Shown here piece after piece: positions 8,791 to 54,422 of a DNA stretch of 56,695 nucleotides (position 1 is the first letter of the stretch; each line of letters starts with the position of its first letter). The notes under the pieces are model-generated. The model did no database searches and had not been told where the DNA came from. It was given only the letters and a program-made list of their open reading frames with translations. The translations under genes were made by a program, and so were the position numbers. The stretch lies in IMG/VR virus record IMGVR_UViG_3300046063_000009. One strand, written 5' to 3'. The DNA comes from a virus.

Positions 8791-8797
8791 CGCCGAC

Positions 8798-16788: not shown

Positions 16789-16825
16789 GTGCCCCGTTAT
16801 AGATAAATGTAGGGCATAGCGATAG
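16789..16825 (-). promoter_or_regulatory. Conserved viral promoter, copy b
   Basis: Coding strand reads CTATCGCTATGCCCTACATTTATCTATAACGGGGCAC. Confidence 0.6.
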
Positions 16826-21836: not shown

Positions 21837-21871
21837 CTACCCGCAAGAAAATAAATGTATAGCATAGCGCC
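21837..21871 (-). promoter_or_regulatory. Conserved viral promoter, copy c
   Basis: Coding strand reads GGCGCTATGCTATACATTTATTTTCTTGCGGGTAG, 16 nt before the ATG at 21820. Confidence 0.65.
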
Positions 21872-22897: not shown

Positions 22898-22933
22898 CTA
22901 CCCGCCGCTATATAAGTGTATGGGGTAGCGGTG
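22898..22933 (-). promoter_or_regulatory. Conserved viral promoter, copy d
   Basis: Coding strand reads CACCGCTACCCCATACACTTATATAGCGGCGGGTAG, 16 nt before the ATG at 22881. Confidence 0.6.
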
Positions 22934-27615: not shown

Positions 27616-27649
27616 CTACCCGGTAAGATATAAATGTACGCATAGCGCC
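27616..27649 (-). promoter_or_regulatory. Conserved viral promoter, copy e
   Basis: Coding strand reads GGCGCTATGCGTACATTTATATCTTACCGGGTAG. Confidence 0.6.
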
Positions 27650-35135: not shown

Positions 35136-35556
35136 CGATGATCACCGTCCCTCGCCGTTCTTCCTTTCGCCTGAATCGCCGCTAAACTGGCGATTGAAGG
35201 GGGTAAGGGTCTGAATCCAGTCGGTACTATTATTTGGTTGGGTGGTCTTTAGAATCATGCGTTGTCACGTGTCGGCGTGCTAGAACCATGCTGTATGCGT
35301 GAAGCGGTGCTGAACGTAGCTCCACGCGGTCGGGGCTGTGATCGCGCTCAACTGATCCGCTCATGCTGCTGGTCAGGGACGGCCGGTCATGCGGTCGTAG
35401 TGCAGCGGCGTAGCAACCGAGGTCGTCTCCGGTCACGGCGCGCGTCCCGCGAACGAGCCTACTACAATCCCGTACCGGGGGCACGCGGTGGCCGACGACG
35501 GCCCTGCGGTTGTTCTTCGGTGTGATGCGTCCTCTCATAGACGTGTCTAGCGTAAT

Positions 35557-35592
35557 CTACCCCGTGGCAGATAAATGTACGCGATAGCGACC
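35557..35592 (-). promoter_or_regulatory. Conserved viral promoter, copy f
   Basis: Coding strand reads GGTCGCTATCGCGTACATTTATCTGCCACGGGGTAG, about 420 nt upstream of the primase-helicase start. Confidence 0.6.
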
Positions 35593-35693
35593 ATATGCGA
35601 CTCCATAAGTGGCGCACGCGACCGCTCACGCGCCAGCACGCCATCGTTGTCGAGTGCGCAGCTCCTAACTCCCCCCGGGTAGTCGCCGATACC

Positions 35694-36314
35694 TCAGTAG
35701 TAGACACGGGTCAAGTCAAAGAAGCCGGAGTAGTATACGTTAGCATCCATTGAGTAGCAGAGCCCTATTCCACCACCCGCCGAGTAGCGGTTACCATCAG
35801 TGTGCGTCAGATCGGGAGCTGATCGATCGAACGTATCCTTCCCATCGATTCCTGCCGTACTCGACTCTTGGATCCGAACAGAAAAATCTCCAGCAGAGTT
35901 CTCCCAGCCAACGAATCTAGTGTCTCTGTTATCATTGTACCCGTCTGAGATGGTACCAGCGTCAACCCGAGCGACCCGCGTTAGCTGAATGAAACCATTA
36001 CCATCACGTCCGTCAGCATACCCGAGCACCGCAGATTCGCTGGCATCCAGGACAGCGAAGTAAAAATGACTACCATCGATAGCTCGAAAGATCGCCCCTG
36101 AATAAACGTGGTTTCGCATAAACGTCCGTATCTCGCCTTCGGCTGGAGCAGAACTGGAACTCCCGTCATTGACTATCCAAGCCTCTTCACCACCTGACTC
36201 TGAGAAAGTCAAACACGCTTCTCCGTCAACCACGCCCTTCCCTGAACTGCTTGATACGTGCCCTGGTGGATCTGTGCTATAGCCATCGTATTGAGTCCAA
36301 TCAACGAGCGACAT
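35694..36314 (-). CDS. Fibre-associated protein, possibly a concanavalin-A-like lectin/LamG fold
   Basis: Last gene of the tail module, lower GC, beta-rich Gly/Ser/Asp composition. The fold assignment is a guess. Confidence 0.55.
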   Translation of the reverse strand: MSLVDWTQYDGYSTDPPGHVSSSSGKGVVDGEACLTFSESGGEEAWIVNDGSSSSAPAEGEIRTFMRNHVYSGAIFRAIDGSHFYFAVLDASESAVLGYADGRDGNGFIQLTRVARVDAGTISDGYNDNRDTRFVGWENSAGDFSVRIQESSTAGIDGKDTFDRSAPDLTHTDGNRYSAGGGIGLCYSMDANVYYSGFFDLTRVYY

Positions 36315-36338
36315 TTTAGCAGTGTAAAGGCCTTGTAT

Positions 36339-36707
36339 TTAACTCTCCCACGATTCGGTCGTCTGTCGACTAGGGGTAGCAGGGGGTATCTCCTCCCAGG
36401 AATCGCTATCAGCAACCGCTCCGAAGCCAGGGGGTATCTCCTCCCACCCCTCAAAGGGTACCGCTCCACTCTTCGATACCGGCGTTCCCGAGACGGAGAC
36501 GTATGAGTCGCCACCACCGTCCAGCAGCGACTCGCCAGAGATGAACTCATAGTCGTGCTCGCCAACGCCGAGGGGCACCCGATCACCTGATTGAAACACA
36601 TACGTCGAGGCTGCCGAGATCTGCCCGTCGATGCCGATGAGCTGGAGGCCGAAGTCCGGCGGTCCCGGTTCCTCCCAGCGTTCGACGGTTTCGAGCGTGC
36701 CGACCAT
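36339..36707 (-). CDS. Hypothetical tail-module protein (122 aa) with an internal WEEIPP duplication
   Basis: The 19-nt repeat cagggggtatctcctccca occurs at 36380-36398 and 36428-36446. ATG at 36707. Confidence 0.65.
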   Translation of the reverse strand: MVGTLETVERWEEPGPPDFGLQLIGIDGQISAASTYVFQSGDRVPLGVGEHDYEFISGESLLDGGGDSYVSVSGTPVSKSGAVPFEGWEEIPPGFGAVADSDSWEEIPPATPSRQTTESWES

Positions 36708-36811
36708 TAGTTCTGTACCTCACCGTCGTATCGGTCGATCTGCTCGCCGACCATCATTGCTCGCTTCTGGTATTGGGTTGTATGGTGTGACATGGTTACT
36801 ACCTCGTGCAT
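36707..36811 (-). CDS. Small ORF (34 aa), tentative
   Basis: MHEVVTMSHHTTQYQKRAMMVGEQIDRYDGEVQN. It fills the gap between the fibre stop (36822) and the next start, with a TAATG-type overlap. Confidence 0.3.
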   Translation of the reverse strand: MHEVVTMSHHTTQYQKRAMMVGEQIDRYDGEVQN

Positions 36812-36821
36812 AGTGAGCAGC

Positions 36822-39023
36822 TCACCGCAGCGGTTGATATTGGACTCTGACATCAACACTGGCGCTTCCCTCTGTCTCTGAAAGCACAACCGCCCAGTTC
36901 CCAGCCGATTCGTCGTAATAGACTTTATCAACCGTTACTCCCACGTCCGATAGCCCTCCCCGCCCCGCCACGCTCACATCGAACTCGGACGGTTGGATCG
37001 GTCTAGAAAGTGCAGTCAAATCGGCGAACGAAAGCGTTGCTGAACCGCCGGCAGAGATCGTAGCAGTCTGGGTTTTGCTAATCGGATCGGCAAATCGCAT
37101 ATCCTCCTGACAGAGAAGCCCGGCAGCATACCCATCAGCTGTCGACCCGTCGAAATAGTTGACAGCCACATCGTCCGAATGCCCCCAGTACACACTTTGT
37201 CCCGAGCTGTTAGGACTAGAACTGATATTCACTTCTCCATTGTTGAATGTCGCTCCCCCTTTTCTTCCAATATGCCCGACATAGGTATTCGAGAAATTGC
37301 TCTGGAACCGGATCGCTTCGTCGTATTCAGCGTCTTGACAAACAATATATTCATAGATTGAGAGCCCAGTCCCTGAATCAACGACTGTAGAGGCCCCCGA
37401 AAGAGCTTTCTCATGCTTTATTTCGTTAATTCTGATTCGATGGTTGCTTCCAGAGAGGCGCACCATCGTCGTCGTGTCAGACTGGGATTCCTGTGCTATC
37501 GATTCAAAGCGCGCTTCCAATCCCGAATTGTTAACGTTGAGAACAATACTGTCGTCTTCTGGTCGGACGAGAATCGGCCCACACTCGATCGAATGAGCGC
37601 CTCCTCCGTTTGCATGAATGAAGCGGCCAGTATAGCTGAAGGCCGATAACTGCCCCCACCGAGCTGTAAATGGCCCAAATGAATCCAGATGGATCACGGG
37701 GTCAGTCCAGTTGGCGAAGCGAACACGGCCGAGATTGAAATGGCGGGCGTTAGCTCCAGAGAAATGGATCGCACTGCCGCCAGTCCGATCCACGTAACTT
37801 GAGCCGTCGAAGTTTAGATCGGTCATGAAGGCTCTCGCAGCGTCATTGAAACCTGAAACATCGAGACCATCGGCCGCTAAATCAGTCATCTCGATTATGG
37901 TCTCGCCGATCCCACGGCCAATGAGGCTCTTCCCGCCGAGACCGCTCAGCGTCGCTGCTTCCGTTATCCGTTTGGATGGAAGCAAAATTATTCCGTTCTG
38001 CGATCCCGAGCCGGTACCGTTAATTGCATCGATGGCATCTTGGACGGGGGTTGTGGTCGCAGTGGGGTCTATCGCATCGATGGCCCCCAATCCCTCCGCA
38101 ATCGGAACGACAAGTCCATCCCAGGCGGCTTGGATGTTGCTGTTGGCTATGTCGTTGACTACCTGCTCTGTAGTTACCGACGTGAGCGGGGTCGTCCCGC
38201 CGAGAGCCTGCCCGTCGTGGCGGTGGCTCGTATCCGATTTTCCATCGAGTTCCTGTTTCCTCCCGACGTCGCTCGCTGTACTCGGCGCGGAGCTTACCCG
38301 TGCTGCCGAGAGTTCTGCACGGGCGTTCTGAATACCACCCGCTCCATCGCTCTCGGCGTACAACCGGGCGAGCGGCGTCCCGTCGATCGCCAGGTCGTAG
38401 CTCTGCTCCGTCCCTGCTGCTGCGTTCCCGTCTACCGGCGCATCGACGATCGCTCCATAGCCACCGGGGTTCGTCCCGAGGTCGTGCGGGAAGGCGTTCT
38501 TCGACACCCGGTCGTCCAACTCACCGACCACGCCTTCTACCGTTCCGGCCTGAAAGTCTCCATCAGAATCGGTGACGACGGTACTCTCGGCATCCTGATG
38601 TTGAGCACGCCAGTTATGTACGTACCCGTCGGGAAGTACATCGTCAAATCCCTGCGGGACGTAGACGACGCCGAGTAGGAGTTCGTCGCCCTGGAGCGTC
38701 GCCGGCTCAGGTGCGGCGGCTGGCGTTCCGGCGCGAAGACCGATCGTACTGGCCGCCGTATCGAAATAGATGGTATCCCAACGGTCGTAGGTCCCATCCC
38801 CGACACCGACGGTGAGACTCGTCCCGCTCGCGCTCGCCTCGGTACCGAGGTAAACTGCCGTCCCACCACCGACGTCAACCTCACGCACGTTCGCCGTTGG
38901 CGAGATTTCGAAGTCGACCGGGGCTCGTACCCCGTTCCCGGCCAGCCCCTCTGTCACCGCACGGAGCTGTACCTCGAATAAGGGATTGCCCTGCGGCCAG
39001 TCGAAGCCCGGAGCGTTCGGCAT
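36822..39023 (-). CDS. Tail fibre / tailspike with a right-handed beta-helix (pectate-lyase-like) C-terminal part
   Basis: 733 aa. GIILLPSKRITEAATLSGLGGKSLIGRGIGETIIEMTD followed by repetitive beta-helix-like turns. The C-terminal half has clearly lower GC. Confidence 0.65.
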   Translation of the reverse strand: MPNAPGFDWPQGNPLFEVQLRAVTEGLAGNGVRAPVDFEISPTANVREVDVGGGTAVYLGTEASASGTSLTVGVGDGTYDRWDTIYFDTAASTIGLRAGTPAAAPEPATLQGDELLLGVVYVPQGFDDVLPDGYVHNWRAQHQDAESTVVTDSDGDFQAGTVEGVVGELDDRVSKNAFPHDLGTNPGGYGAIVDAPVDGNAAAGTEQSYDLAIDGTPLARLYAESDGAGGIQNARAELSAARVSSAPSTASDVGRKQELDGKSDTSHRHDGQALGGTTPLTSVTTEQVVNDIANSNIQAAWDGLVVPIAEGLGAIDAIDPTATTTPVQDAIDAINGTGSGSQNGIILLPSKRITEAATLSGLGGKSLIGRGIGETIIEMTDLAADGLDVSGFNDAARAFMTDLNFDGSSYVDRTGGSAIHFSGANARHFNLGRVRFANWTDPVIHLDSFGPFTARWGQLSAFSYTGRFIHANGGGAHSIECGPILVRPEDDSIVLNVNNSGLEARFESIAQESQSDTTTMVRLSGSNHRIRINEIKHEKALSGASTVVDSGTGLSIYEYIVCQDAEYDEAIRFQSNFSNTYVGHIGRKGGATFNNGEVNISSSPNSSGQSVYWGHSDDVAVNYFDGSTADGYAAGLLCQEDMRFADPISKTQTATISAGGSATLSFADLTALSRPIQPSEFDVSVAGRGGLSDVGVTVDKVYYDESAGNWAVVLSETEGSASVDVRVQYQPLR

Positions 39024-41523: not shown

Positions 41524-42108
41524 TTAGTCTCCGTTGCGCTCTCCCGTCCCGGTAGCCTCGTCCTCGCTGTTAGCTTCCCCCTCCCGCAGACCGAGTGGAT
41601 CGGCCCGCCCGAGCCGGCCTAACCACTTAATCTCAACCTTCGCGGACGCCGGATCGACTACGTACCACACGGCAGTCGAGAGCATCAACACGCCCATCGT
41701 GACTGCCAGCACGCCGTAGGCGGCAAATTGGTGCTCCAGACTCCCTACTGACGTGTAGCGGAAGGCCACATACCCGGCGAGTAGGCTCCCGAGTATCCAG
41801 AGCCACGAGCGCACCTCTGCCGACGGTAGCAGTCTCCCGCTCACCTGCTCGGGTGTGCTTCGATTTCGCCCTGGAACCGAGTCGCTACGAACCTCAGCCG
41901 GTGCCTCCTGCATGGTACGGATCTCGACCAGGATAGCGAAGCACACCACGCCCAGCAGCACCCACGGGAGAGCGTATAGCCACTGGGTGAGGGTAATGCT
42001 CCCAGCGAGCAGCGGCGTCGTCCACGCGATGAACACTACCACCCCGCCGAGGATCACGGCTCCATCGAAGTGATCGCCGTCGCCTGCCGTCGAGTCGCTA
42101 CTGGACAT
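41524..42108 (-). CDS. Multi-pass membrane protein (4-5 TM) inside the tail module
   Basis: Trimmed to the ATG at 42108 (MSSSDSTAGDGDHFDGAVILGGVVVFIAWTTPLLAG...). Confidence 0.65.
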   Translation of the reverse strand: MSSSDSTAGDGDHFDGAVILGGVVVFIAWTTPLLAGSITLTQWLYALPWVLLGVVCFAILVEIRTMQEAPAEVRSDSVPGRNRSTPEQVSGRLLPSAEVRSWLWILGSLLAGYVAFRYTSVGSLEHQFAAYGVLAVTMGVLMLSTAVWYVVDPASAKVEIKWLGRLGRADPLGLREGEANSEDEATGTGERNGD

Positions 42109-43579
42109 GGCCTGTGAGTCCGATCGTAGCGATGCCGGAGGTATTAGTGCTCGTCTCGGAGACCACGAACTCACCGAGCACGGGTCTGCGGTTCGGCGGG
42201 TCCCAGCGCACGGGGAGGCGCTGGCCGGATCGGATCGCGTGAAAGCGACGGTCGGCGATCTCGAAGGTCATCGCCGTTTCCTCCCAAGCGTTCTCGGCGA
42301 GAAACCCCTGCGCGCGAGCGAGTGCTTCCCGGTTTGTTTGGATCTTCGGGTCCGACAGTGGCTCCGATCGTGGCGAAACCCCATAGAACTGGATCGAGGC
42401 GTCGTCACGAGCGGCCACCTGGACGTCGCCCGCTCCCTGCACCGTCACCTCGTTCACCACGTCGTCGTAATCGCGGTCGATCTCCGCGCTCACGACCGCC
42501 GTGCTGTCGTAGTCGATCGACAGCCCACTCGGTGCGGGTGTGCTCCCCGTCGGTTCGTAGTGTAGCACGTCGTTGCGGTCAACCCAGGAGGTCGCCTGAT
42601 CCTCCGTGCCAAGCGTCTCGATCAGTTCGAAGACCGTGCTATCGACCCGGCGCGTGATCGTTCGACCGCTGTTCTCGACCCCACCCGTCCCCAGGTCGGG
42701 GCCGCCGCCGAGCGTACGCTGGCGAACCGCGATCGGTTTCGTTCGGCAGTGATCGATGAGCGCACCCCGTGGCTCGCCCAGTGGCGAGGTGATCTCGAAC
42801 CTATAGCGCAGCGTCCCCCCGCCGAGTTCGGCGGTGATAAGGTCGCCCCTCGGTGTGGCGTCCTCCGCACGGAGCCGGTAGGTCTCGAAGCCGGTGGCCG
42901 GACCCGAGTCGCTGTCGCCAAGCGGCCAGACGTACTGATGGGTTCCGTCGTGCAGCGCCACCTCCGCTCGAAACTGCCCCCCCTCGTTGTTCACCAGCAC
43001 GCGCGTTACCAGCTCGGCGACCTGGCCCTCGCCAGGGATCGCGCCCGCCGGCACCCCTGAGTAGGTCGCAGCGTACTCGCCGGCCGCGCCGCCGCGCCAC
43101 CCGGCGAACAGCATATCCGCACCGTACTGCCGGTACGTATCGCTCTGGAAGTCACAGACCTCGAACACGGGGATGTTCGCGCTCCACCCGTCGGGGCTGC
43201 TGCCGGTATGCACTGTCACCGCACTCTCCTGCCGAGCGCGCGTCTCGATCGCCCGCCGGATGATCTTCCCCGTATCCATCTCGTAGAACGGCCGGTTGAC
43301 GTCTACCTGCTGGAGTCCATAGCGATTGTCGCGCACGTCCAGCCCGAGGAAGCCACCGTTGCCCTCGACGGAGGGCTGGCCGACCAGCGTGCCGGTGAAC
43401 TCCGTCTCGCCGTCGCGGGTTACGATCACCTGGTCGCCGCTGTCGATCCCTCGGTTCGCGTCCGTGTTCGTCACGGTGAGCGTCCCCCGCCCGAGCCGGG
43501 TGCCGTCGGCGCTATCGAGGCTCACGTCCACCAGGCCATCGACCGGCGCTCCGTCCGCTGTCGCCTCCCAGACGGGCAT
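42098..43579 (-). CDS. Baseplate hub / distal-tail (Tal/Dit-like) protein (position-based)
   Basis: 493 aa, three genes downstream of the tape measure gene. Confidence 0.5.
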   Translation of the reverse strand: MPVWEATADGAPVDGLVDVSLDSADGTRLGRGTLTVTNTDANRGIDSGDQVIVTRDGETEFTGTLVGQPSVEGNGGFLGLDVRDNRYGLQQVDVNRPFYEMDTGKIIRRAIETRARQESAVTVHTGSSPDGWSANIPVFEVCDFQSDTYRQYGADMLFAGWRGGAAGEYAATYSGVPAGAIPGEGQVAELVTRVLVNNEGGQFRAEVALHDGTHQYVWPLGDSDSGPATGFETYRLRAEDATPRGDLITAELGGGTLRYRFEITSPLGEPRGALIDHCRTKPIAVRQRTLGGGPDLGTGGVENSGRTITRRVDSTVFELIETLGTEDQATSWVDRNDVLHYEPTGSTPAPSGLSIDYDSTAVVSAEIDRDYDDVVNEVTVQGAGDVQVAARDDASIQFYGVSPRSEPLSDPKIQTNREALARAQGFLAENAWEETAMTFEIADRRFHAIRSGQRLPVRWDPPNRRPVLGEFVVSETSTNTSGIATIGLTGHVQ

Positions 43580-43583
43580 CGTA

Positions 43584-43796
43584 TCAGCGACTCACCCGCT
43601 GGCCTTTGAACAGCGGCGGCCCGACCGACTCCGCTCCATAGTTGAGGGCCTTTCGCACCGGCTCACCGCCCTCCGAGACGAATAGGACCGTACCGAACTC
43701 GCTCTCGCTGTCGTCCTCGGGTCGGCTTGGGTACGTCTGATTTCGGCGGCTGAGTAGTTCGCGCAGATCACACAACGGCAGGCGGTCGTGGCTCAT
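43584..43796 (-). CDS. Hypothetical protein (70 aa)
   Basis: ATG start with an ATGA overlap. Confidence 0.55.
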   Translation of the reverse strand: MSHDRLPLCDLRELLSRRNQTYPSRPEDDSESEFGTVLFVSEGGEPVRKALNYGAESVGPPLFKGQRVSR

Positions 43797-44143
43797 AGTC
43801 GCTCCCGCGGCTGCCGCTCGCGCTCACGGCCCCGCTCCCGATCGTTCTCGAGTTCCTGTCGGTGGCGCGCCCGCCCGATAGCGAGCGCGACGAACCCGAC
43901 CGTCACGAGGACCATCGCCACGATCCCACCGTTGATCGCCTTCGCGGTCTCCCCGGTGATGATCACCGCCTGGGCGCTGCCGAGTGCGAACGCGATTCCA
44001 ATGATGATACCGAGCGCGCCGCTACCGGCTAAGAAATCGGTGAGCAGCGTGGTGTGCTCGGCCGTCCGGTCAACTGCCGTCTGCCGGTCGTCGGGGGCGC
44101 TGCCGTCGCGCCCGGGGTCCGTTTTAGGTTTAGATGTGGGCAT
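43793..44143 (-). CDS. Membrane protein (2 TM) with a basic C-terminal tail, inside the tail module
   Basis: Trimmed to the ATG at 44143 (MPTSKPKTDPG...GALGIIIGIAFALGSAQAVIITG...GGIVAMVLVTVGFVALAIG...). Confidence 0.6.
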   Translation of the reverse strand: MPTSKPKTDPGRDGSAPDDRQTAVDRTAEHTTLLTDFLAGSGALGIIIGIAFALGSAQAVIITGETAKAINGGIVAMVLVTVGFVALAIGRARHRQELENDRERGRERERQPRERL

Positions 44144-44588
44144 CGATATGAGTGAACTCCAGGTCGAATCCGTACTCTTTCGCGAGGTCCTGGTCACGGT
44201 TTTCTTCTGCTCGGTACATCGTTAGCATCCCCGTAATCTGCCGGCCATCCCAGCGGAACTCATCGAGCCCGCCACCGCTGGTCGCCGCCGCAATAATGTC
44301 AGGTCCCCACTCTTTCGCTGCGCGTCGGAGTTCGTTCTCGAATCCGTAGTTGTCGTTCGAGTACGCTCCCGAGTTCGGGTAGTGGCTCGCCTCGGTGGCT
44401 TTCATCTCGCCGGTGATTTGGTAGGTCTCGGTGTTTATCACGATGTTCGTCCCGAAGATCTCGTTCAGCGTCGAGATCGCCGCCCGGGTGATCAGGTCGT
44501 TATCCAGCTTCACCTCGACACGGTTTGCTTTAAGCACGAACGTCTCGGTGCCGTCGGCCTTCACTAATTTCGTAGTAGGTTGTGCCAT
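44130..44588 (-). CDS. Distal tail protein-like (152 aa, position-based)
   Basis: Track ORF 44130..44969 trimmed to the ATG at 44588 (MAQPTTKLVKADGTETFVLK...). It lies directly after the tape measure stop. Confidence 0.55.
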   Translation of the reverse strand: MAQPTTKLVKADGTETFVLKANRVEVKLDNDLITRAAISTLNEIFGTNIVINTETYQITGEMKATEASHYPNSGAYSNDNYGFENELRRAAKEWGPDIIAAATSGGGLDEFRWDGRQITGMLTMYRAEENRDQDLAKEYGFDLEFTHIDAHI

Positions 44589-44622: not shown

Positions 44623-46797
44623 TCAACGCCCGGAGTAGCCCGTCCGTAACCCGACGTCGGTGCCGATCTCCTCGGCGAGCATCCGGACGAGCTCTTGCAT
44701 CCGCGACCGCGACATTTGCGAGAGGTCCATCGTCTGATCGCCGATCTCGATAGTCCCGACGAGCGGCCCGTCGCCTGCCTGTCCACCGTTGGTCGCCTGG
44801 GCGGTCCCGCTACCGCCGCCCATCGCCTCCGCGAGCACGCCGCCGAGCGCCTCGGGATCGAACCCGCGCGACACGTCTGCGGGGGCTGGCACGACCGTCT
44901 CGCCTGGATGGAGCATCGCCGCTCCAGCCTGCTCGATGACCCCCCCGACGGCGAGCTGCGGCAGGTCAACCGTCGCCCCGCCGAAGGATTTCCCCCCGAC
45001 GTTGATCGTCGGCAACCCGACCGTCTCGGGAATCATCGCGTTCCAGGTGTCAGAAAAAATTGAACTCGCCGCTCTCGATACCGCGCCGGCCAGCCGCGAG
45101 ATCCGCCCGGGAAGCCGGCGTTCGAGATCGGCGATCGCGCTCCCCAACCGATCGAACGGTTTGAGCAGCGCCCTCTTCGCCGAGGACGCCACCCCGGTTA
45201 GCTTCTGCCACACGGTTCGACCCGCGCTCGCGCTCGTCCGAACGAGCCAGTCGTAGGTGCCCGTCACCCAATCGATCACGCCGCCTTTGAACCCCCTCCA
45301 CGCGCCGACCGCCGGCTGGACGACGTTCGTGTCGAGCCACTGGCCGACGCCGGCGAAGGTTCGCTCCCAGACATCGAAGAGCACGCCAGCGACCCGGCCA
45401 GCCTCACGGAAGCCAGCATCCACCGCCGGCACCAGCCCCTCGTCGATCTTTGAGGCGAAGCCGTTGATGAACCCCCCGAGCACGGCGATGATCCCGCCCC
45501 CACCGAGTGACCACGCGGTGAGGATCGCGTCGGCCGTCCCGGGGCCGATCCATTTGCGCAGCTTCTCGCCATACTCGCTGACCGTATCCATCACCCCGGA
45601 GTTCTGGAGCTGCCGAACGACCGCCACGCCAAGCGCCGCCCCGATCGCCGCTCCCCACGACTTCCCGCCCGCGAACTTGAGGATCGACCACCCGATCCGT
45701 AGCATCGACTTCAGCGGTCCCTTCAGTCTCCCGAGCCACCTCGCTGCCGTCTGGACGGCGCTACGGATGTACTGGCCGATGTTCAGCTTCGCGAACGCCC
45801 GGACGATCCTGCCGACCCACCCGCGCGCCCACTTCACAGCGCCACTGAGCGCCCCCCGGAGTGCCCCCGCTGCACGACTCGCGTACTGCCTGACCAGCCG
45901 CGGCAGCTCGCGGAGCCGGGGGATTCGAGCGAGCAGTCGGCCGACCCACTTCTTTACCCACCCGACGAGGCCTGACAGTTGCGCGCGGAACCACCGGGCC
46001 GCCTTCCCGGCGATCGCCTTTACGAGCTGCCACAGCCGCGCCAGTCGCGGGAACTTCGCCAGCAACCGACCGACCCACTTCTTTGCCCACCCGACCAGAG
46101 AACCGAGGAGCCGAGTAAACCAGCGCCACGCTTTGCCGGCGTACAGCTTGAGCGTCTGCCAAATCGCTCGCAGCGAAGGGAACTTCGATAACAGTCGGCC
46201 CACCCACTTCTTCGCCCACCCAACGAGTCGGCCAAGCGTCCCGGTAAACCAGCGCCATGCCTTCTGCGCGACCCCTTTGATGAACTGCCAGGCTTGCGAG
46301 AGCGAGGGGAGGCGGGCGAGGATGCGACTCACCCACTTCTTTACCCACCCGACAGCGCGCCCGAGAATCCCCTTGAGGAAGGCGACTGCTCTGCCGATCC
46401 ACTTCTTCACTAGAGACGGGATTGCCTTTAGCCGCTTCCAGATCGCCAGCACGCGGTTGATCGCCCGGAGTATCCACCCGATCGCCGAGCGGACGAGGCC
46501 CGCTGCCTTCCCGAACAGCCGGAGGATACCGAGCAACGACGTGAACTTCGCGATGAGGAAAAACAGCGTCCCGTTGAGCACCTCAGCCTTCGTATCGAAG
46601 CGATCGACCTGCCCCGAGGCCCGATCCATCGCCCCCGAGAACCGTCCCGTCTTCGCTGCGCCTCCGGCCATCCGACTGTTTGCGGCCTCCGTGCTCTCGG
46701 CGGCCTGCTGCGTCGCATCCTGGTACTTCTCAACTTCCTGCTGGGCCTCGTTGACCCCCGCGACCTTCGCTACCCACTCCAGCCCGCCGACGATCAC
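44623..46797 (-). CDS. Tail tape measure protein
   Basis: 724 aa, downstream of the chaperone pair. It has a helical repeat array, Gly-rich hydrophobic segments and a GTG start. Confidence 0.8.
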   Translation of the reverse strand: MIVGGLEWVAKVAGVNEAQQEVEKYQDATQQAAESTEAANSRMAGGAAKTGRFSGAMDRASGQVDRFDTKAEVLNGTLFFLIAKFTSLLGILRLFGKAAGLVRSAIGWILRAINRVLAIWKRLKAIPSLVKKWIGRAVAFLKGILGRAVGWVKKWVSRILARLPSLSQAWQFIKGVAQKAWRWFTGTLGRLVGWAKKWVGRLLSKFPSLRAIWQTLKLYAGKAWRWFTRLLGSLVGWAKKWVGRLLAKFPRLARLWQLVKAIAGKAARWFRAQLSGLVGWVKKWVGRLLARIPRLRELPRLVRQYASRAAGALRGALSGAVKWARGWVGRIVRAFAKLNIGQYIRSAVQTAARWLGRLKGPLKSMLRIGWSILKFAGGKSWGAAIGAALGVAVVRQLQNSGVMDTVSEYGEKLRKWIGPGTADAILTAWSLGGGGIIAVLGGFINGFASKIDEGLVPAVDAGFREAGRVAGVLFDVWERTFAGVGQWLDTNVVQPAVGAWRGFKGGVIDWVTGTYDWLVRTSASAGRTVWQKLTGVASSAKRALLKPFDRLGSAIADLERRLPGRISRLAGAVSRAASSIFSDTWNAMIPETVGLPTINVGGKSFGGATVDLPQLAVGGVIEQAGAAMLHPGETVVPAPADVSRGFDPEALGGVLAEAMGGGSGTAQATNGGQAGDGPLVGTIEIGDQTMDLSQMSRSRMQELVRMLAEEIGTDVGLRTGYSGR
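45784..46482 (-). repeat. About 5.4 tandem copies of a 129-nt (43-aa) unit within the tape measure gene
   Basis: VGW(V/A)KKWV recurs at aa 149, 192, 235 and 278 (and degenerate at 321). The units are Trp/Arg/Lys-rich, e.g. GWAKKWVGRLLSKFPSLRAIWQTLKLYAGKAWRWFTRLLGSLV. Confidence 0.85.
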
Positions 46798-46845: not shown

Positions 46846-47184
46846 TTACTGCTCGCTGCGCTGCTGGCCGTCGCCGACGTTCGAGAGCCCCGCCTGCCGT
46901 CGAGCCCGATCGCCTTCCGCCTCGGCCCGATCGGACTTCGCCTGCTCGTGTTCCTGATGAAGCACGAGATACCGCCAGACCGAGTGTTCGGAGAGCCCGG
47001 GCGTCTCCTCGACGGATACCTCGCGGCGATACAGCGGCGGGTACACCCACCACAGACGTTTCGAGAGCCAGCGCCGTGTCCGTGCCCAGAAGCCAGACGG
47101 CTCCATGTACGTGCGCGTAACAGTGCGCTTCCCGAGCGTGGTCTCAAGCGGAACGTTGGCTTCTTTCGCCAGCAGCAGTTGCAT
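46846..47184 (-). CDS. Tail assembly chaperone, T-like frame (position-based)
   Basis: Lies between the G-like ORF and the tape measure gene. Its frame stays open upstream to 47265, overlapping the 3' end of the G-like ORF in the -1 frame. Confidence 0.45.
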   Translation of the reverse strand: MQLLLAKEANVPLETTLGKRTVTRTYMEPSGFWARTRRWLSKRLWWVYPPLYRREVSVEETPGLSEHSVWRYLVLHQEHEQAKSDRAEAEGDRARRQAGLSNVGDGQQRSEQ

Positions 47185-47207: not shown

Positions 47208-47750
47208 CTACTGGGTTCTCCGGGCGCTCGTCTCGGATCGCTCGTCTGAGTTTTCCTCTTCGCCCTCATCGAGATCGACCCCGCCCGGATCGGGGAGGTG
47301 GCCTTCGAGCTGGGCACCAAGGTGCGAACTCAGCCCGGTCAGGAACGTGCTCAGGGTTGCGTTCTCCTCGTCGGCGAGCGACCAGTCGTCGGTTTTCGCC
47401 TCCGCGACCTCCCGGTAGTAGCGCTCCATCTGCACCTTCCCGCCGCCGCCGGCGGTCTGTTCGATACAGTCGCTCATGATCTGGTTCGTTCTGAACCAGC
47501 TTATATCGGTGAAATCAAACCACCATGCCCGCGGTGACCGCCCCTCGCTCTCGGCGACGTCCGGGTCCTCGGTGAGCACGACCCGCTCGGCATCGCTCGA
47601 GACCATCGCGTCCTGAAAGCTCCCGAGATCGTAATCGGCGTACTCCGCTGGGAGCCCCGTTTCCGGGTCGATCTCCTCGCGCCCCGCTTCCGAAGCCCCT
47701 GGCGTCTCGTCCTCTCGCCCGGCCACCGCTCGCCCCGATTCATTGTCCAT
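47208..47750 (-). CDS. Tail assembly chaperone, G-like (position-based)
   Basis: Acidic 180-aa protein. The ATG at 47750 lies 4 nt after a CGGGTAG element (the track start 47765 is a GTG). Confidence 0.5.
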   Translation of the reverse strand: MDNESGRAVAGREDETPGASEAGREEIDPETGLPAEYADYDLGSFQDAMVSSDAERVVLTEDPDVAESEGRSPRAWWFDFTDISWFRTNQIMSDCIEQTAGGGGKVQMERYYREVAEAKTDDWSLADEENATLSTFLTGLSSHLGAQLEGHLPDPGGVDLDEGEEENSDERSETSARRTQ

Positions 47751-47754
47751 CTGT

Positions 47755-47789
47755 CTACCCGGCACTCACGATAGACGGCAAATAAAATA
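47755..47789 (-). promoter_or_regulatory. Promoter candidate for the chaperone/tape-measure operon
   Basis: Coding strand reads TATTTTATTT...CCGGGTAGACAG-ATG. Confidence 0.4.
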
Positions 47790-48134
47790 CGTCGAGTATA
47801 GGGGTTGCTTTATCCACCCGATCGACACAACAGTAATGGAGGTCGCCTCCATTGGGTAGCCCGACCGCCGGAGGGCTGAGAAGGTCTGTGTCGTCGGACT
47901 TCAGTTCGGGTCCTCCGAACGGTCACGAACACGCTACCATGCGCGCGGCTTCCCCCCGCGCGGGTCGGCCCGGTCTTCCCTCCCCCCTGGTTGGCGGGCG
48001 ACCCCCAACCATCGCCGGCCCTCTCACCGCCGCCGTGAACCACCCGCCGATCACCTGCCGGAACCCGGACGGTTCACGGGGTTACTTCCGATATAATTAT
48101 AGCCAAATAAACCTCGGAACGAGTAGAGTTGCGC

Positions 48135-49376
48135 ATGGTAGACCACGAAACAATCGTTGTCGATGAGGACGACACACACAGACTCTCGCTTCGTGACGGC
48201 GACGTAGTCGAGAATCTGCTGATCGACATTACGGCCCCGGGCGCGGCCTGGGCGATCGACTGCTGGGGTGACGGCTGGGAGCTCCGTAACATCGGTATCG
48301 AGGGCAAGGTCGATCGGGCGACCGGGCCGAAGAAGGGCCTTCGTCCGGGCTGTCCCGAGGGCGGCCACGGGCTCGTCGAGAACTGCTACTTCTCCGGGCG
48401 GGCCTACGACATGGGCTGGGCCTGGGACTTCGGGAACTGCTGGATTCGGGCCAAGCACGCCGGCCACATCGACTTTCGATACGTCACCGTCGTCGATGCC
48501 GCTGACAACGGGATCTATGGGACGGGGCCGAACAAGGACGACTCGCCGCAGCGCGGCCACGGGACGGCAAAGATCGAGAAGTGCCACGCCGAGAACAACG
48601 GCAACGGGAGCTTTCGCCTGGGCGGAGCCGGGGCTGAGATCGCCGATTCGACTGTCCTGATTGAGCAGAAGACGCCGCCGACCACCCATCCGAACCCCCA
48701 CGGTGCTCGCGGCGTCGTCGCAGAGGGGGCGGACGGGATCGAGGTACGCGACTGCGACATCAAGTTCACCGGCACCGACGGGTATGGCGTCGCGGCAGTC
48801 GATAGCTGGACGGGAACCCCTATCGAGGTCTACGACTCCCGTATCACCGGGCCCATCGGCGATTCCGTTCGGCTCCACGACTCCGAACACGGCCCGCAGG
48901 CCGCCGACCCGACCCCCCGCCCGGGCGTCCCGCTGACCGCCAACCAGGCGGCGACCGGGGGCATCCCGGCGCGGCCGGAAAACGCGAAGTACGTGACGGT
49001 CCAGGGCGTCGGACAGCGCGGGGCTGGAGCTTTTGACTACGAGCTCCGGGCGGCCGGTGGGAAGATATGGCCCGGCGAGGACGCTTCCGCGGAAGACCGA
49101 ATCCACTCAGGACAGACAGTCGCCGAAGGCCGTGTCTGGGCTCCTTGGTTTGATGATTTCTGGGTGAGCCCCAGTGCGGACCTCGACGTCACGGTTGGAG
49201 ACGATCAGGCGCTGGTGACGCTCGACGGCGAGCCGCTCGACGTCGGTGTAATGGACCTTCCGAGCCAGCAAATAGATCAAGAGGCGGTCGAAAAGCGGGC
49301 GCGCGAGTTGTTCGAGCAATACCGAGCGGAGTTCCTTGACGAGACGGAAGCGTTCGTCGCGGAGTACGGCCAATGA
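48135..49376 (+). CDS. Right-handed beta-helix protein (pectate-lyase-like), putative glycan depolymerase
   Basis: VTVVDAADNGIYGTG, KCHAENNGNGSFRLGG and GVVAEGADGIEVRDCDIKFTGTDGYGVAAV are PbH1-like turns. ATG at 48135 with TATAATTATA / CAAATAAACC upstream. It is on the opposite strand to the surrounding tail genes. Confidence 0.65.
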   Translation: MVDHETIVVDEDDTHRLSLRDGDVVENLLIDITAPGAAWAIDCWGDGWELRNIGIEGKVDRATGPKKGLRPGCPEGGHGLVENCYFSGRAYDMGWAWDFGNCWIRAKHAGHIDFRYVTVVDAADNGIYGTGPNKDDSPQRGHGTAKIEKCHAENNGNGSFRLGGAGAEIADSTVLIEQKTPPTTHPNPHGARGVVAEGADGIEVRDCDIKFTGTDGYGVAAVDSWTGTPIEVYDSRITGPIGDSVRLHDSEHGPQAADPTPRPGVPLTANQAATGGIPARPENAKYVTVQGVGQRGAGAFDYELRAAGGKIWPGEDASAEDRIHSGQTVAEGRVWAPWFDDFWVSPSADLDVTVGDDQALVTLDGEPLDVGVMDLPSQQIDQEAVEKRARELFEQYRAEFLDETEAFVAEYGQ

Positions 49377-49606
49377 GAGATTCGTACCGCGGTGGACTAG
49401 ACTCGCCGGCCGGCGACGAGGCGCGGTCAATCCTCGAAGCCATCAACGACAACGCGACGGCGTTCGGGATGGGAATGATGATCGGGGCAGCGCTGGTTAT
49501 CGGCTTCGCTATGACGCTGGTATGGAAAGTCCGACTGTGCTTGATCGACCTTTGGTTGTGGGCCGACCCTCCAGACGATTGGGACACTACACTACATGAC
49601 CCATAA
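49373..49606 (+). CDS. Small membrane protein (77 aa)
   Basis: TM segment FGMGMMIGAALVIGFAMTLVW. ATGA overlap with the beta-helix gene stop. Confidence 0.55.
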   Translation: MRDSYRGGLDSPAGDEARSILEAINDNATAFGMGMMIGAALVIGFAMTLVWKVRLCLIDLWLWADPPDDWDTTLHDP

Positions 49607-49937
49607 ACAGTAACAGCGCCACCCCGCCGAGGAGGACGCCCACGCCGATCATCGTCCCTCCGAGCGCGTACCACGGCTCGGTCTGAATCGTCCGCAACCC
49701 CGGCGGCGCGTCGGGACCGACTCGCCGGAAGCCCAGCGCCACCGCGTAGTACACGAGCGCGACCACGAGCGCCCCACCGGTCAGCCCTTCGATGCCGAGC
49801 AACAGCCCGATGAGTATGGTCGCGGCGATGGCCTGCCCGATGGCCGTGCCGAGGATGAAGGCGTGGAGTTCGTCGTAAGTAAGACTGCCCCCGACCGGAA
49901 GTGAGACAACCGGGTCGCTTCCCTGTACCACGATCAC
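49587..49937 (-). CDS. Membrane protein (3 TM, 116 aa)
   Basis: AIGQAIAATILIGLLLGI, GGALVVALVYYAVALGF and MIGVGVLLGGVALLLFMG. GTGA overlap with the upstream gene. Confidence 0.65.
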   Translation of the reverse strand: MIVVQGSDPVVSLPVGGSLTYDELHAFILGTAIGQAIAATILIGLLLGIEGLTGGALVVALVYYAVALGFRRVGPDAPPGLRTIQTEPWYALGGTMIGVGVLLGGVALLLFMGHVV

Positions 49938-50263
49938 TCCTCCCCCGGGGTGTGGCTGTTGTCTCGGTCAGCGTCGTCGGTGGTTGTATCACCGGAACGA
50001 TCGAGGCTGCCGTCTTGTTCTCCGGTGGGGGCTCCGGTCTGTTTGACAGACGCCGCCCGACCGTCGCCGCGTTCGATCTGCCGCCGGGTGACGTACTGTG
50101 AGATCAACGCCACGACCAACACTGTGAGTTGATCGTAGACGGGTCCGGGGTTGGCAAACCCCATCGCTTTACCGAGATACGAAAACCCCCAGATTACGAC
50201 GATAAACCCGATAATGAAGCTTTCAAGGTCGGCCTCACCCGGCGATTTCAAACCCCGGGCCAC
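49934..50263 (-). CDS. Membrane protein (2 TM, 109 aa) with an acidic tail
   Basis: FIIGFIVVIWGFSYLG and LTVLVVALISQYV. GTG start. Confidence 0.6.
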   Translation of the reverse strand: MARGLKSPGEADLESFIIGFIVVIWGFSYLGKAMGFANPGPVYDQLTVLVVALISQYVTRRQIERGDGRAASVKQTGAPTGEQDGSLDRSGDTTTDDADRDNSHTPGEE

Positions 50264-50433
50264 TATCCGTCATCTCTCGCCGAAACCCAGTACGCTACGC
50301 CGACCGAGATGCAGAAGCTTCCGACCATCGCGATCTCGTCCGGGAGGGTTGCCGCCGCTGCGAGCAGGCCAGTAACGACGACGGGAAACCGAAGTCCGAG
50401 CGCCGTCGAACCGAGGGTACCGATAGTTCCCAT
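50263..50433 (-). CDS. Small membrane protein (56 aa)
   Basis: Trimmed to the ATG at 50433 (MGTIGTLGSTALGLRFPVVVTGLLAAAATLPDEIAMVGSFCISVGVAYWV...). Confidence 0.5.
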   Translation of the reverse strand: MGTIGTLGSTALGLRFPVVVTGLLAAAATLPDEIAMVGSFCISVGVAYWVSARDDG

Positions 50434-50444: not shown

Positions 50445-51407
50445 TCAGACGTAGGCCGTTGAGGCCGAGTCTTCGACCGTGATCTCGACACCGAGCGGGG
50501 TGATCGAAACGTCGGGTTCGATCGGGTCCGACCCCGAGGGGAGATCGTGCGGGGCACTCTCTATCTGGCACTCCGTACAGGTGATCGTCAGCGTGTTTCC
50601 GTTCGGTCGGGTGAACTCCATCGACGCCTCGAAGCCGCCGGCCGTCGGTGAGGTCAGCTCGTTGTAAATGGCGTTATCCGTCACCCGAATCGTCGGCTCC
50701 AGGCTATAGCCCAGATTCCCGTACAGGATCTCGAACGGATCGACGCCCGTAGTGTCGTCCAGGTACCGGCCTTCCTGAAGGTTGTTCTCGATCGTCAACG
50801 AGAAGTCCTGCACCCGAGCGAAGCTGGTTCCGAATAGCGACAGCGACGATGAAACGTCTTTGAACAGCCACGGGTCGGCTTCCGGGGGAGAGATGCCTGA
50901 CGTTGCGCTCGTGCCCGATGAAACACCCAGTCCCCAATAGTCCAGACTCACGGTGAGTTCGTCGTCGTTCGAGATCGACAACTCCCCGGAGTTCGGCACA
51001 CAGCCGTCGAACGTTCGGACGATATTCGAGCCCGACCCCCGACCGTACAGCACTGCCTCGATCGTCTGTGAGGGGGGTAAGCCGTTCATCTTCGGCGTGA
51101 TCGTGTGCGTATAGGGCGCGGACGACCCGGTGACGGTGTCCGTTCCGAGCAGATACGCCAGCGGCGCACCATCGACCAGCGTGATCGGAATGTCACCGCC
51201 CTGGAACTCGCGCTGGCCTCGGTGATGCTGGTGGCCCTCACGGGTCCCACCGACAACGTGACTCAGCATCCAGTTCTGCTCGGGGTCTGGTAGCGAGGCG
51301 TCCTCTTGGATCTTCCCGAACGCGCGCGCCGGGCTTACGCTCGTCCCCTGCGTCGATTCCACGCCGACGCCGAGTTGGGCGTCTTCTGACTTGTACGGTG
51401 CAGCCAT
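50445..51407 (-). CDS. Major tail (tube) protein, siphovirus type
   Basis: 320 aa, beta-rich, located between the neck genes and the chaperone/tape-measure genes. No sheath gene is present. Confidence 0.55.
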   Translation of the reverse strand: MAAPYKSEDAQLGVGVESTQGTSVSPARAFGKIQEDASLPDPEQNWMLSHVVGGTREGHQHHRGQREFQGGDIPITLVDGAPLAYLLGTDTVTGSSAPYTHTITPKMNGLPPSQTIEAVLYGRGSGSNIVRTFDGCVPNSGELSISNDDELTVSLDYWGLGVSSGTSATSGISPPEADPWLFKDVSSSLSLFGTSFARVQDFSLTIENNLQEGRYLDDTTGVDPFEILYGNLGYSLEPTIRVTDNAIYNELTSPTAGGFEASMEFTRPNGNTLTITCTECQIESAPHDLPSGSDPIEPDVSITPLGVEITVEDSASTAYV

Positions 51408-53146: not shown

Positions 53147-53553
53147 CGCGTGAACCCCGTGATAGCGTCCTCAGGGATGTCGATCCACTCAATCCGGGTA
53201 TGCTCGCCGACCAGTGGGTCGGCTTCGAGCGCTTCGATCGAGGGGTAGGTTGAGATACCCGCTCCACCCTCCATCCGGGCGAGTGTGAGTTGGCCGCTCG
53301 GGTGTGGATAGAGCGTCCCCTGCGCGACCGCCCGCTCGACGGTCGTACCTGCCGGAGTTCCCGTCTCGCGCTTCAACAGGTTGAACCGGAGAGGATCTAA
53401 CCCGTCGGCATGGCCCGGCTCCGATCCGCTTCGTTCGCGGTCGTCCGTGGCGGCCTCCTTAGCGCGCTCGCGGTGGCTCTCCTCGTCATGCTGCCGGTCG
53501 TCGGTGCGTTCCTCCTCGGTATCGCCGTCGCTGGTGGACTGTGGATCGCTCAT
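53143..53553 (-). CDS. Hypothetical head-module protein (136 aa)
   Basis: ATG start with ATGA overlaps on both sides. Confidence 0.6.
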   Translation of the reverse strand: MSDPQSTSDGDTEEERTDDRQHDEESHRERAKEAATDDRERSGSEPGHADGLDPLRFNLLKRETGTPAGTTVERAVAQGTLYPHPSGQLTLARMEGGAGISTYPSIEALEADPLVGEHTRIEWIDIPEDAITGFTR

Positions 53554-54422
53554 AGGCTCGGTCTCCTGCGGTAGGCTTGCGTCGCGTCTCGCGCAGCGGC
53601 GAACAGCTTCCCCGCTGCCGTCGTCTGATCGGGCGTGTTCTCCGGGCCGGAGGCGAGCATCGATCCGTACTGGTCGGTATGGATCAGGTCGGCCGCGACG
53701 AACTTCGCGCAGGCGTTACGCAACTCTCCGGGGACGCTCGCGCTCGGCTGGGCGTACTCCGTCTCGGCGTTCGCCGCCGTCTGTGCGCTCTCGTCGGTGC
53801 CGTAGCGGTAGCTCAGTCGGACGAGCAGCGGTGCGAGCGTCGGCTGGCTCCGTCCGTGCAGTCCGATCGCCCCGCTGCTGGTCGTCGTCCCCTCGCCACT
53901 GAAGGCAGCGAGATCGACGTGCAGTAGGCCAGAGCGCGCGTCGAGAACGAAGTCGTTGCCGTCGCCGAGCGCCCGGCCTTCGTTGGCTGTGATGTCCGTC
54001 TCTCCGTTCTCGTGGAGCACCACTACCGAGTCGCCAGCGCTCCCGTCGATCGATCGCACGTCCAGGTGATTGAGTACCGCGAGCACGCGCCGCCGCCCGC
54101 CGCCTCGGCGACCGATCCGACCGCCAGCTACTCCGTAGCCTCGACCGCGAGCGCGCCCGTGCATCGATCGCCCGCCGCGAACTGGCGTGCGGCGCTGACT
54201 GTGGCTCCGCTGCGCTGTCACCTCGATGTCGCTCACTCGGCGCGTGCGCCATGCCCGTCCGGTGATCCGGTCGATCCGGCTGGACGCGCGCAGCAGTAAC
54301 TCGCGCACCTGCTCGTCGGTCGGGTCGCTTGAGGCGTCGAAAGTCTTGTTCCGAATGTAGACCGCGACGTCACTCGGGTCTGCGTAGGGCACCTCATCGA
54401 CCAGTTCGGAGGTGACGGACAC
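53550..54422 (-). CDS. Head-tail connector/adaptor (gp6-like N-terminus) with an Arg/Gly-rich insertion
   Basis: The N-terminus YADPSDVAVYIRNKTFDASSDPTDEQVRELLLRASSRIDRITGR resembles gp6-like adaptors. The RGG-rich segment is at aa 72-113. Confidence 0.5.
   Translation of the reverse strand: MSVTSELVDEVPYADPSDVAVYIRNKTFDASSDPTDEQVRELLLRASSRIDRITGRAWRTRRVSDIEVTAQRSHSQRRTPVRGGRSMHGRARGRGYGVAGGRIGRRGGGRRRVLAVLNHLDVRSIDGSAGDSVVVLHENGETDITANEGRALGDGNDFVLDARSGLLHVDLAAFSGEGTTTSSGAIGLHGRSQPTLAPLLVRLSYRYGTDESAQTAANAETEYAQPSASVPGELRNACAKFVAADLIHTDQYGSMLASGPENTPDQTTAAGKLFAAARDATQAYRRRPSL

Follow-up and report, generated by a model that had tools for sequence, protein, structure and literature searches.

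A lineage-specific island of a beta-helix protein and four small membrane proteins in a haloarchaeal siphovirus: a candidate egress system

Between the tail tube and tail assembly chaperone genes of the virus record IMGVR_UViG_3300046063_000009, a stretch of 56,695 nucleotides that was analysed as a whole and is referred to here as the window, lies a 2.7-kb island of five open reading frames (ORFs). The island is best explained as two insertions: Unit B on the plus strand (48082-49606), which encodes a beta-helix protein and the small membrane protein p77, and Unit A on the minus strand (49587-50433), which encodes the small membrane proteins p56, p109 and p116. Its most likely function is virion egress by a system of the holin/endolysin type, a reading that we nevertheless place short of an even chance. 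A more specific form of this reading, which we put forward tentatively, is that Unit B is a mobile egress module in which a host glycanase secreted by the twin-arginine translocation (Tat) pathway was captured, its signal was stripped and a coupled membrane protein replaced export, while the viruses add unrelated holin-like proteins of their own, here p56, p109 and p116. The argument draws on more than gene size and hydrophobicity: cellular members of the family are secreted, and the viral copies are signal-less, have a conserved membrane partner and move together with it between unrelated viruses.

Lysis by haloarchaeal tailed viruses is an acknowledged gap, for which the island offers a compact and testable candidate. 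A review from 2024 reports no S-layer-hydrolysing enzyme and no holin for archaeal viruses and calls tailed-virus egress 'completely uncharacterized' (PMC10791045), and a survey from 2025 has only computational holin candidates (PMC12596118). Both agree with the preliminary description of this DNA, according to which the lysis genes of tailed haloarchaeal viruses are not defined. Among archaeal tailed viruses, PeiW and PeiP are the only lysis enzymes established to degrade the envelope (PMC10791045). For haloarchaeal tailed viruses, the only lysis genes proposed are gp33 and gp34 of HFTV1, which a transcriptome paper, on the basis of a personal communication, calls the 'proposed (late) lysis transcript' (PMC12542753). 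If the egress reading is true, the island would be the first defined enzyme and membrane-protein lysis system of haloarchaeal tailed viruses, and what is new in this candidate is that, in an archaeal virus, lysis-cassette logic would involve a beta-helix enzyme that is not muralytic. If it is wrong, the protein is still likely to be a glycan depolymerase of an uncharacterised family of more than 1000 members, useful for S-layer and exopolysaccharide (EPS) biology.

The beta-helix protein and its membrane partner

Unit B is a two-gene operon. Its first gene (48135-49376, plus strand) encodes the beta-helix protein of 413 residues, which carries no export signal. The second (49373-49606, plus strand) overlaps the first in an ATGA and encodes p77, a protein of 77 residues with one transmembrane (TM) segment at residues 34-50; the TM segments of p77, p56, p109 and p116 were assigned by hydropathy. 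In the p77 family the N-terminus MRDSYRGGLD is invariant and the TM core is also conserved. A promoter-like element at 48082-48113 on the plus strand, TTACTTCCGATATAATTATAG followed by CCAAATAAACC, lies about 22-53 nt upstream of the ATG of the beta-helix gene. The motif is unique in the window, with 0 occurrences expected by chance, and the pattern TTACTTC..ATATA.TTA.AG is invariant upstream of the beta-helix gene in both virus lineages that carry it (the window and L003 in one, L006 and L007 in the other). This placement and conservation suggest that the element acts as the promoter of the beta-helix/p77 operon.

The fold of the protein was approached by modelling. A first AlphaFold2 (AF2) model was confident only for residues 1-275, with low confidence for residues 277-393. 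A second model of residues 1-285, based on a 38-sequence alignment, reached a predicted local distance difference test (pLDDT) value of 88.7 and a predicted template modelling (pTM) score of 0.90, with about 22 short strands. These models establish residues 1 to about 275 as a predicted right-handed parallel beta-helix, the fold that the preliminary description had named and for which it had suggested a Foldseek comparison. The beta-helix starts at about residue 4, with no N-terminal particle-binding (adaptor) domain ahead of it, and is followed by a beta-rich region (residues ~277-380), modelled at low confidence, and by a long helix (residues 382-411) that none of the aligned cellular homologues has. 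The Foldseek matches are mainly tailspikes and carbohydrate-active enzymes with a right-handed beta-helix, among them the fucoidan lyase FdlA, pectin methylesterases, PL6 alginate lyases, a PL3 pectate lyase, the Klebsiella K1 lyase, Klebsiella capsule depolymerases and the tailspikes of P22, Det7 and CBA120; a few pentapeptide-repeat proteins of the Qnr family appear too. A sequence-profile search of the PDB returned a spurious match only, and NCBIfam returned none. The viral copy preserves the polar positions that are invariant or near-invariant in the family (N27, D31, R51, N52, E82, N83, H108, N125, Y128, R161 and R192), which could not be placed in a known active site. Family and fold together predict that the protein is probably glycan-binding or glycan-cleaving.

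In cells, the family is exported. A word-indexed search yielded only seven relatives, and an exhaustive HMMER search found 1109 representative family proteins, including 409 with E <= 1e-30. With each species represented by a single genome, scanning gave 73 loci, all of them in Halobacteria. A Tat-type RR motif stands ahead of the domain in 70 of these 73 cellular loci by motif and in the remaining three on inspection (L015, with a mis-chosen start; L027, with RRGC; and L042, with RRTC), and most of the top matches of the exhaustive search are likewise Tat-bearing. The cellular Tat-secreted proteins, for example P0005 of Haloprofundus halobius, P0007 of Natrialbaceae and L015 of Salinibaculum salinum, share the homologous domain with the viral ones at 25-38% identity (tblastn E down to 1e-47) as well as the motifs ENxLID, WxIRNVG, DNGIY, FRLG and GVPxTAEEAA. 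The viral proteins, in contrast, are without the Tat signal and have their own C-terminal helix, a p77 partner and their own promoter. The viral N-terminus MVDHETIVV aligns, from residue 3 onward, with the first mature residues of the cellular proteins (...A-EYETITV...). By this alignment the viral copies are the bare mature domain and have lost the Tat signal, so that the earlier statement that the 413-residue protein has no signal peptide holds against its Tat-bearing homologues. A coupled small membrane ORF downstream was found in none of the 73 cellular loci; two flagged ORFs start 69-77 nt off and are neither coupled nor convincing on inspection.

The closest cellular relative (38% identity), from a metagenome-assembled genome of Haloarculaceae, lies in a polysaccharide-biosynthesis cluster. 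This cluster contains a Wzx-type flippase, a UDP-GlcNAc 2-epimerase, a type I phosphodiesterase, a second beta-helix protein and a DUF354 protein with weak, sub-threshold glycosyltransferase matches. Other family members are fused to polysaccharide-lyase, concanavalin-like lectin or PKD domains. We infer for the family an extracellular, glycan-directed function.

Relatives at 67-81% identity, found via cluster members, occur in a second virus lineage (lineage 2; contigs L006, L007 and L102-L105). Its gene order starts with an integrase on the minus strand, an ORF of 106 residues, a primase of 1025-1091 residues (phrog_1829), an ORF of 81-82 residues and the beta-helix gene (427-430 residues), the integrase lying two genes upstream of the primase. 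The p77 homologue (71-80 residues) comes next, then a 91-96-residue protein with one TM segment, a basic stretch and a long acidic tail, a 134-residue protein with a C-terminal TM anchor, and small ORFs of 62, 108 and 57 residues. The order ends with an ORF of 258 residues (phrog_23205, a small terminase by position only), the large terminase TerL, the portal, the protease and the major capsid protein (MCP). The interval from replication to terminase genes is the position of the lysis genes in lambdoid phages. The p77 homologues of L006, L102, L104 and L105 (49% identity) stand directly after the beta-helix gene, and a p77-family gene follows every viral-clade beta-helix gene. The beta-helix gene is 78-82% identical between the two lineages, the portals share 33-43% local identity and the MCPs are undetected by tblastx. 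Because the module is far more similar than the portals and MCPs, sequence comparison indicates that the beta-helix/p77 module has been exchanged horizontally between the lineages.

A third context is a mobile element with a P4-type primase, seen in L106 (ENA ERZ10759774, a 58-kb contig, positions 8001-14533) and in L107. Its signal-less proteins of 903 and 800 residues contain three and two copies of the beta-helix domain, and four small membrane-protein genes (83, 90, 91 and 213 residues) follow convergently. Small TM genes adjoin signal-less family members in three unrelated contexts, compared with 0 of 73 Tat-bearing cellular loci. In an all-against-all BLASTP of the small TM proteins of the window, HFTV1, HHTV-2, lineage 2 and L106, cross-lineage similarity is confined to the p77 family. 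DNA and protein searches with the beta-helix gene against 50,697 phage records gave no match, and IMG/VR scans with the protein and with the family alignment recovered the window's own lineage only. Two scans of metagenome contigs gave no confirmed relative, the relevant samples evidently lying outside that collection.

A separate observation on lineage 2 concerns a small helix-turn-helix (HTH) regulator gene pair, at 20391-20892 (minus strand) in the window and at 19017-19479 in L102. With 74-86% protein identity it is, on sequence comparison, a second module exchanged with this otherwise distant lineage.

The insertion site and Unit A

The window has ~56.7 kb and ~64% GC, with all structural genes on the minus strand, and by its gene content is a haloarchaeal siphovirus genome related to Saparoviridae. 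Its tube protein is 60% identical to that of HHTV-2 and 56% identical to that of HCTV-2, both Haloarcula siphoviruses of this family, and the tail genes downstream of the island match PHROGs specific to viruses of the HHTV-2/HCTV-2 type. The window is a complete, circularly permuted genome, because the order from portal to protease and MCP runs across its ends (position 1 / 56695) exactly as in the related 27.7-kb contig L087; the protease/scaffold gene crosses the window end and the portal block lies near the window start. A provirus/host junction was also considered as the nature of the island and is rejected, because the window is a whole virus genome in circular permutation. A scan of its ten largest non-structural ORFs turned up no integrase.

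The upstream boundary of the island is the tail tube gene (320 residues; 50445-51407, minus strand; PF18906, E 8.1e-43; phrog_290, E 7e-47), the last conserved late gene ahead of it. The downstream boundary is the tail assembly chaperone G (47208-47765, minus strand; phrog_25860, E 2.4e-20), which is followed by its frameshift extension T (46846-47184, minus strand; phrog_35486, E 1.1e-12) and the tape measure gene (44623-46797, minus strand; phrog_15478, E 3e-34). In 13 relatives with a homologous tube (HHTV-2, HCTV-2 and 11 metagenomic ones), the chaperone or next tail gene follows 25-220 nt after the tube gene. Since these relatives run tube straight into chaperone, comparative gene order identifies the island as a lineage-specific insertion at the tube/chaperone junction. 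As is expected of a moron, the island interrupts a gene pair that is adjacent in relatives; its base composition is not deviant, GC being 0.60-0.66 over 47-51 kb, like most of the genome.

The same five genes occur in the same order, with open frames, in two further samples, L003 (JGI 3300046057) and L087 (SRR18079254), and the window and L003 are 95.5% identical in DNA with reading frames preserved. All five ORFs show the coding pattern in which GC at third codon positions (GC3) exceeds that at first positions (GC1) and this in turn that at second positions (GC2), a pattern not found in the ORFs of the 47766-48134 spacer or in the long antisense ORFs. That the small ORFs are chance ORFs of GC-rich DNA is ruled out by codon-position GC and by their conservation in three samples. 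The anatomy given in the preliminary description therefore stands in most respects: the 2.7-kb interruption of the order tube, chaperone, tape measure by five ORFs; the direct succession of tube and chaperones that is normal elsewhere; three coupled minus-strand membrane proteins of 56, 109 (2 TM) and 116 (3 TM) residues, now with ORFs and hydropathy behind them; an own promoter for the plus-strand unit, whose activity is predicted from a unique and conserved motif; the ATGA-coupled membrane protein of 77 residues; and the 20-nt 3' overlap at 49587-49606. The island as a single cassette, on the other hand, has to be given up in favour of two units with separate histories.

The genes of Unit A are translationally coupled behind the tube gene and, by position, belong to the late operon. 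The first gene after tube encodes p56 (56 residues; 50263-50433, minus strand; GC3 0.70), with two hydrophobic segments at residues 11-27 and 34-50. Its ATG is 11 nt from the tube stop, and the spacer holds GUGAUCC, a Shine-Dalgarno-like motif that is complementary to the 3' end of 16S rRNA and ends 4 nt before the ATG. The start of p109 (109 residues; 49934-50263, minus strand) overlaps the p56 stop in TAGTG. The protein has two TM segments (residues 15-31 and 42-58, the second weaker) and a hydrophilic, charged C-terminal tail of 51 residues, and this predicted architecture makes it a holin-like candidate and the most holin-like of the island's membrane proteins; its gene differs from the L003 copy by six synonymous and three non-synonymous codons. 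The p116 gene (116 residues; 49587-49937, minus strand; GC3 0.82) overlaps p109 in GTGA and encodes three TM segments. p116 is fast-evolving: it is only 86% identical to the L003 copy, between flanks that are 97-100% identical, and differs from it by 13 non-synonymous and nine synonymous codons plus in-frame indels.

The p77 and p116 genes converge, and their 3' ends overlap by 20 nt (49587-49606). Neither a T-run nor a hairpin terminator follows either of the convergent units, and a sigma-70/intrinsic-terminator scan, whose model is not meaningful for archaea, gave no convincing terminator. At the other end of Unit B, a non-coding GC-rich spacer (47766-48081) separates the divergent chaperone and beta-helix genes and contains no ORF with the coding GC3 pattern. 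Of only 25 AT-rich islands in the 56.7 kb, two flank this spacer, at 47778-47792 and 48089-48103. The former is a TATA-like element (minus-strand GTATTTTATTTGCC) upstream of the chaperone gene. From its position, it may start transcription anew beyond the insertion, for the chaperone, tape measure and tail genes. The spacer also contains a perfect hairpin with an 8-bp stem at 47835-47853. A structured RNA in the 370-nt spacer was considered and rejected, with no Rfam family at the gathering threshold or at E <= 1, nor any in the window, and folding z-scores of -0.3 and -1.9.

Egress and the competing readings

In the mechanism proposed for egress, the captured beta-helix enzyme would fold and accumulate in the cytoplasm, which is plausible because Tat substrates fold before export. 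Its extracellular substrate, S-layer glycans or EPS, would be out of its reach until a late stage of infection, when at least one of the small membrane proteins would breach the membrane. For this step p77 could be a candidate because it is the dedicated partner, and p109 because it is the most holin-like protein; p56, p109 and p116 could serve as additional holin or antiholin-type factors. The freed enzyme would then loosen the envelope or matrix and so aid virion escape. Of the hallmarks of a lysis cassette, the island has an enzyme without export signal, whose envelope-directed activity is predicted only, and neighbouring small TM proteins, namely the ATGA-coupled p77, p109 with its charged tail, p116 and p56.

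Holin-endolysin cassettes of bacteriophages, such as lambda S/R and the LysA-holin pair of mycobacteriophages, are built in a similar way. There too, the gene of a signal-less, envelope-directed enzyme is translationally coupled to that of a small membrane protein, other small TM proteins are encoded close by, one of them with 2 TM segments and a charged C-terminal tail, and the module is mosaic and mobile; the lineage 2 module lies between replication and terminase genes. The differences are that the enzyme here has a beta-helix fold of glycanase type and is not muralytic, that the host is without murein, that no holin-family homology is present, that the enzyme gene precedes its TM partner, and that the window unit lies within the tail module and converges on the late operon. 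The pseudomurein endoisopeptidases PeiW and PeiP likewise have no known route of export (PMC10791045), but their fold and substrate are unrelated, and their methanogen hosts have pseudomurein whereas S-layer haloarchaea do not.

The HFTV1 pair offers the nearest comparison for Unit A. In the HFTV1 record, gp33 has 110 residues, 2 TM segments and a charged tail of ~45 residues, gp34 is a small hydrophobic protein of 52 residues, and both lie directly upstream of the tube gene. They have the same build as p109 and p56 and, like them, stand beside the tube gene. However, the two pairs have no sequence similarity (BLASTP of p109 with gp33, E 0.13), gp33/gp34 lie upstream of tube in HFTV1 and p109/p56 downstream of it here, and HFTV1 is without the beta-helix/p77 unit. 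The lysis assignment of gp33/gp34 is itself a personal communication and not published evidence.

Several points weigh against egress. The island is seen only in the window's own lineage and is missing from the 13 relatives, and among these HHTV-2 and HCTV-2 are, as we assume, lytic isolates, so that the island could be at most one of several solutions or an accessory. The membrane proteins have no holin-family homology: those of the island match no holin or defence family in Pfam, PHROGs or PADLOC, with no meaningful E-values, and two of them, p109 and p116, are ORFans seen in no more than the three samples of this lineage, with an empty tblastn search against 50,697 phage records. On the enzyme side, all Foldseek matches are weak (E >= 1.8e-3, TM-score <= 0.46) and assign no enzyme family among the polysaccharide lyases (PL1/3/6/9) or glycoside hydrolases (GH28, GH90), and the Pfam model PF13229 (Beta_helix) scores 17.8 bits, below its gathering cut-off of 25.9, with the family member P0020 at 26.9 bits. 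Lytic function and glycan cleavage are predictions throughout, and the haloarchaeal envelope consists of S-layer glycoprotein, which, to our knowledge, is not established to need a glycanase for its breakage. The two units also have separate histories and may be adjacent by coincidence, Unit A occurring only in this lineage and Unit B also in lineage 2. Moreover, holin-like ORFs lie elsewhere in the genome. An ORF at 43793-44197 (minus strand; ~116-134 residues), with 2 TM segments and a very charged C-terminal tail (RARHRQELENDRERGRERERQPRERL), is arguably the most holin-like of all, and another at 41524-42174 (minus strand; 216 residues) has ~4 TM segments; both are inside the tail module, are absent from HHTV-2 and HCTV-2 and have no PHROG or PADLOC match. 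Lastly, gp31 of HFTV1, a signal-less glycan enzyme encoded near the tube gene, is part of the virion.

That last case leads to the possibility, unlikely in our view, that the beta-helix protein is a virion-associated depolymerase or decoration, trimerising, perhaps via its C-terminal helix, into a tail or capsid spike that binds or cleaves the receptor, with the membrane proteins unrelated to it. HFTV1 gp31 was identified as the capsid turret head protein by cryo-electron microscopy (PMC12494034). Like the beta-helix protein it is signal-less, 413 residues long and of a carbohydrate-active type, with its gene three genes upstream of tube in HFTV1; unlike it, gp31 has a polysaccharide-deacetylase-like fold, is co-oriented within the structural operon together with the base protein gp30 and has been seen in the virion. 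The same tailspikes and depolymerases that appear among the Foldseek matches, from P22, Det7, CBA120 and Klebsiella, favour a spike, as do the position of the gene inside the tail module, the helix at 382-411 that aligned cellular homologues do not have, and the signal-less multi-domain family members of 800-1575 residues in mobile elements. Tailspikes and capsule depolymerases such as P22 gp9, the Klebsiella K1 lyase and CBA120 TSP2 share the right-handed parallel beta-helix of ~10 coils, at Foldseek matches that are weak (E >= 1e-2, TM-score <= 0.4), but here no N-terminal adaptor is present to bind the particle, the gene lies under its own promoter on the strand opposite all structural genes, and its translational coupling to a membrane protein is conserved. 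Furthermore, viruses whose MCPs show no detectable similarity share the module at ~80% identity; in lineage 2 it stands in the interval from primase to terminase and, as far as that genome was seen, apart from the tail genes; and even without this gene the window encodes a complete tail set of the Saparoviridae type and a 733-residue candidate for a baseplate or receptor-binding protein (RBP).

As passive accessory cargo, freed by lysis of another cause, the enzyme could degrade EPS, biofilm or receptor-bearing debris so that progeny diffuse, again with the membrane proteins unrelated; we judge this equally improbable. The relatives without the island, the movement of Unit B as an autonomous promoter-bearing unit, the differing distribution of Units A and B and the EPS-type gene cluster around the closest cellular relative all fit such a role, which leaves unexplained, however, why every viral copy has a coupled TM partner with an invariant N-terminal motif and why small TM genes stand beside signal-less members in three unrelated contexts. 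Least probable of all, to our mind, is that the island remodels the surface or excludes superinfecting viruses: p77 would hold the enzyme at the membrane, where it would trim lipid-linked glycan precursors on the cytoplasmic face and alter S-layer glycosylation, the receptor, while the membrane proteins would block rival viruses. Haloarchaeal tailed viruses do use S-layer glycans as receptors (PMC10791045). An opposite-strand unit with its own promoter is moron-like, lineage 2 is temperate by its integrase, and the fast evolution of p116 is what an arms race would lead one to expect. Against this stand the absence of a PADLOC defence-family match, the absence of an integrase among the ten largest non-structural ORFs scanned in the window, the placement of Unit A in co-transcription with the late structural genes, by position and with no lysogeny-type promoter, and the action of the cellular homologues outside the cell.

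Egress thus remains the reading that we favour, and the lysis-cassette logic that the preliminary description saw in the island survives in part, while its alternatives of a second tailspike and an exclusion module keep a lower probability. The signal-less copies, the conserved p77 coupling, the mobility of the module and the likeness to gp33/gp34 speak for it; the missing holin homology and the 13 relatives without an island speak against it.

Other features of the genome

A promoter-like motif of ~20 nt (plus-strand ATAAATGTATAGCATAGCG and variants) recurs at 6681-6696, 16796-16811, 21844-21862, 22909-22921 and 27623-27639, upstream of minus-strand gene blocks, and is of another class than the two AT-rich elements on either side of the island spacer. 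A short plus-strand block contains a homologue of TFIIB/TFB (28375-29481, plus strand; PF00382, E 1e-17), and this viral TFB homologue could direct temporal promoter classes, the island promoter included. In addition, a fusion of glutamine amidotransferase and QueC (13556-15076, minus strand; PF06508, E 1e-53) suggests DNA modification of the 7-deazaguanine type.

Several tail and head genes show local peculiarities. The baseplate/RBP candidate of 733 residues (36822-39023), whose N-terminus matches phrog_20556, extends with its C-terminal part into a low-GC stretch at 35000-38000 (0.52-0.58, compared with ~0.64), which also covers the small ORFs downstream and is probably a recently exchanged receptor-binding region. 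Within an ORF of 290 residues (53550-54422), the segment 53761-54249 is only 57-64% identical to L003, between flanks of 97-99%; by this comparison, a protein of the head-tail region with an RG-rich segment has here a local stretch that is hypervariable or has been replaced. The tape measure protein has 724 residues, compared with 419-435 in HHTV-2 and HCTV-2, and its residues ~145-325 contain four 43-residue repeats (GW.KKWVGRLL..P.L...), which Tandem Repeats Finder (TRF) does not detect at the DNA level.

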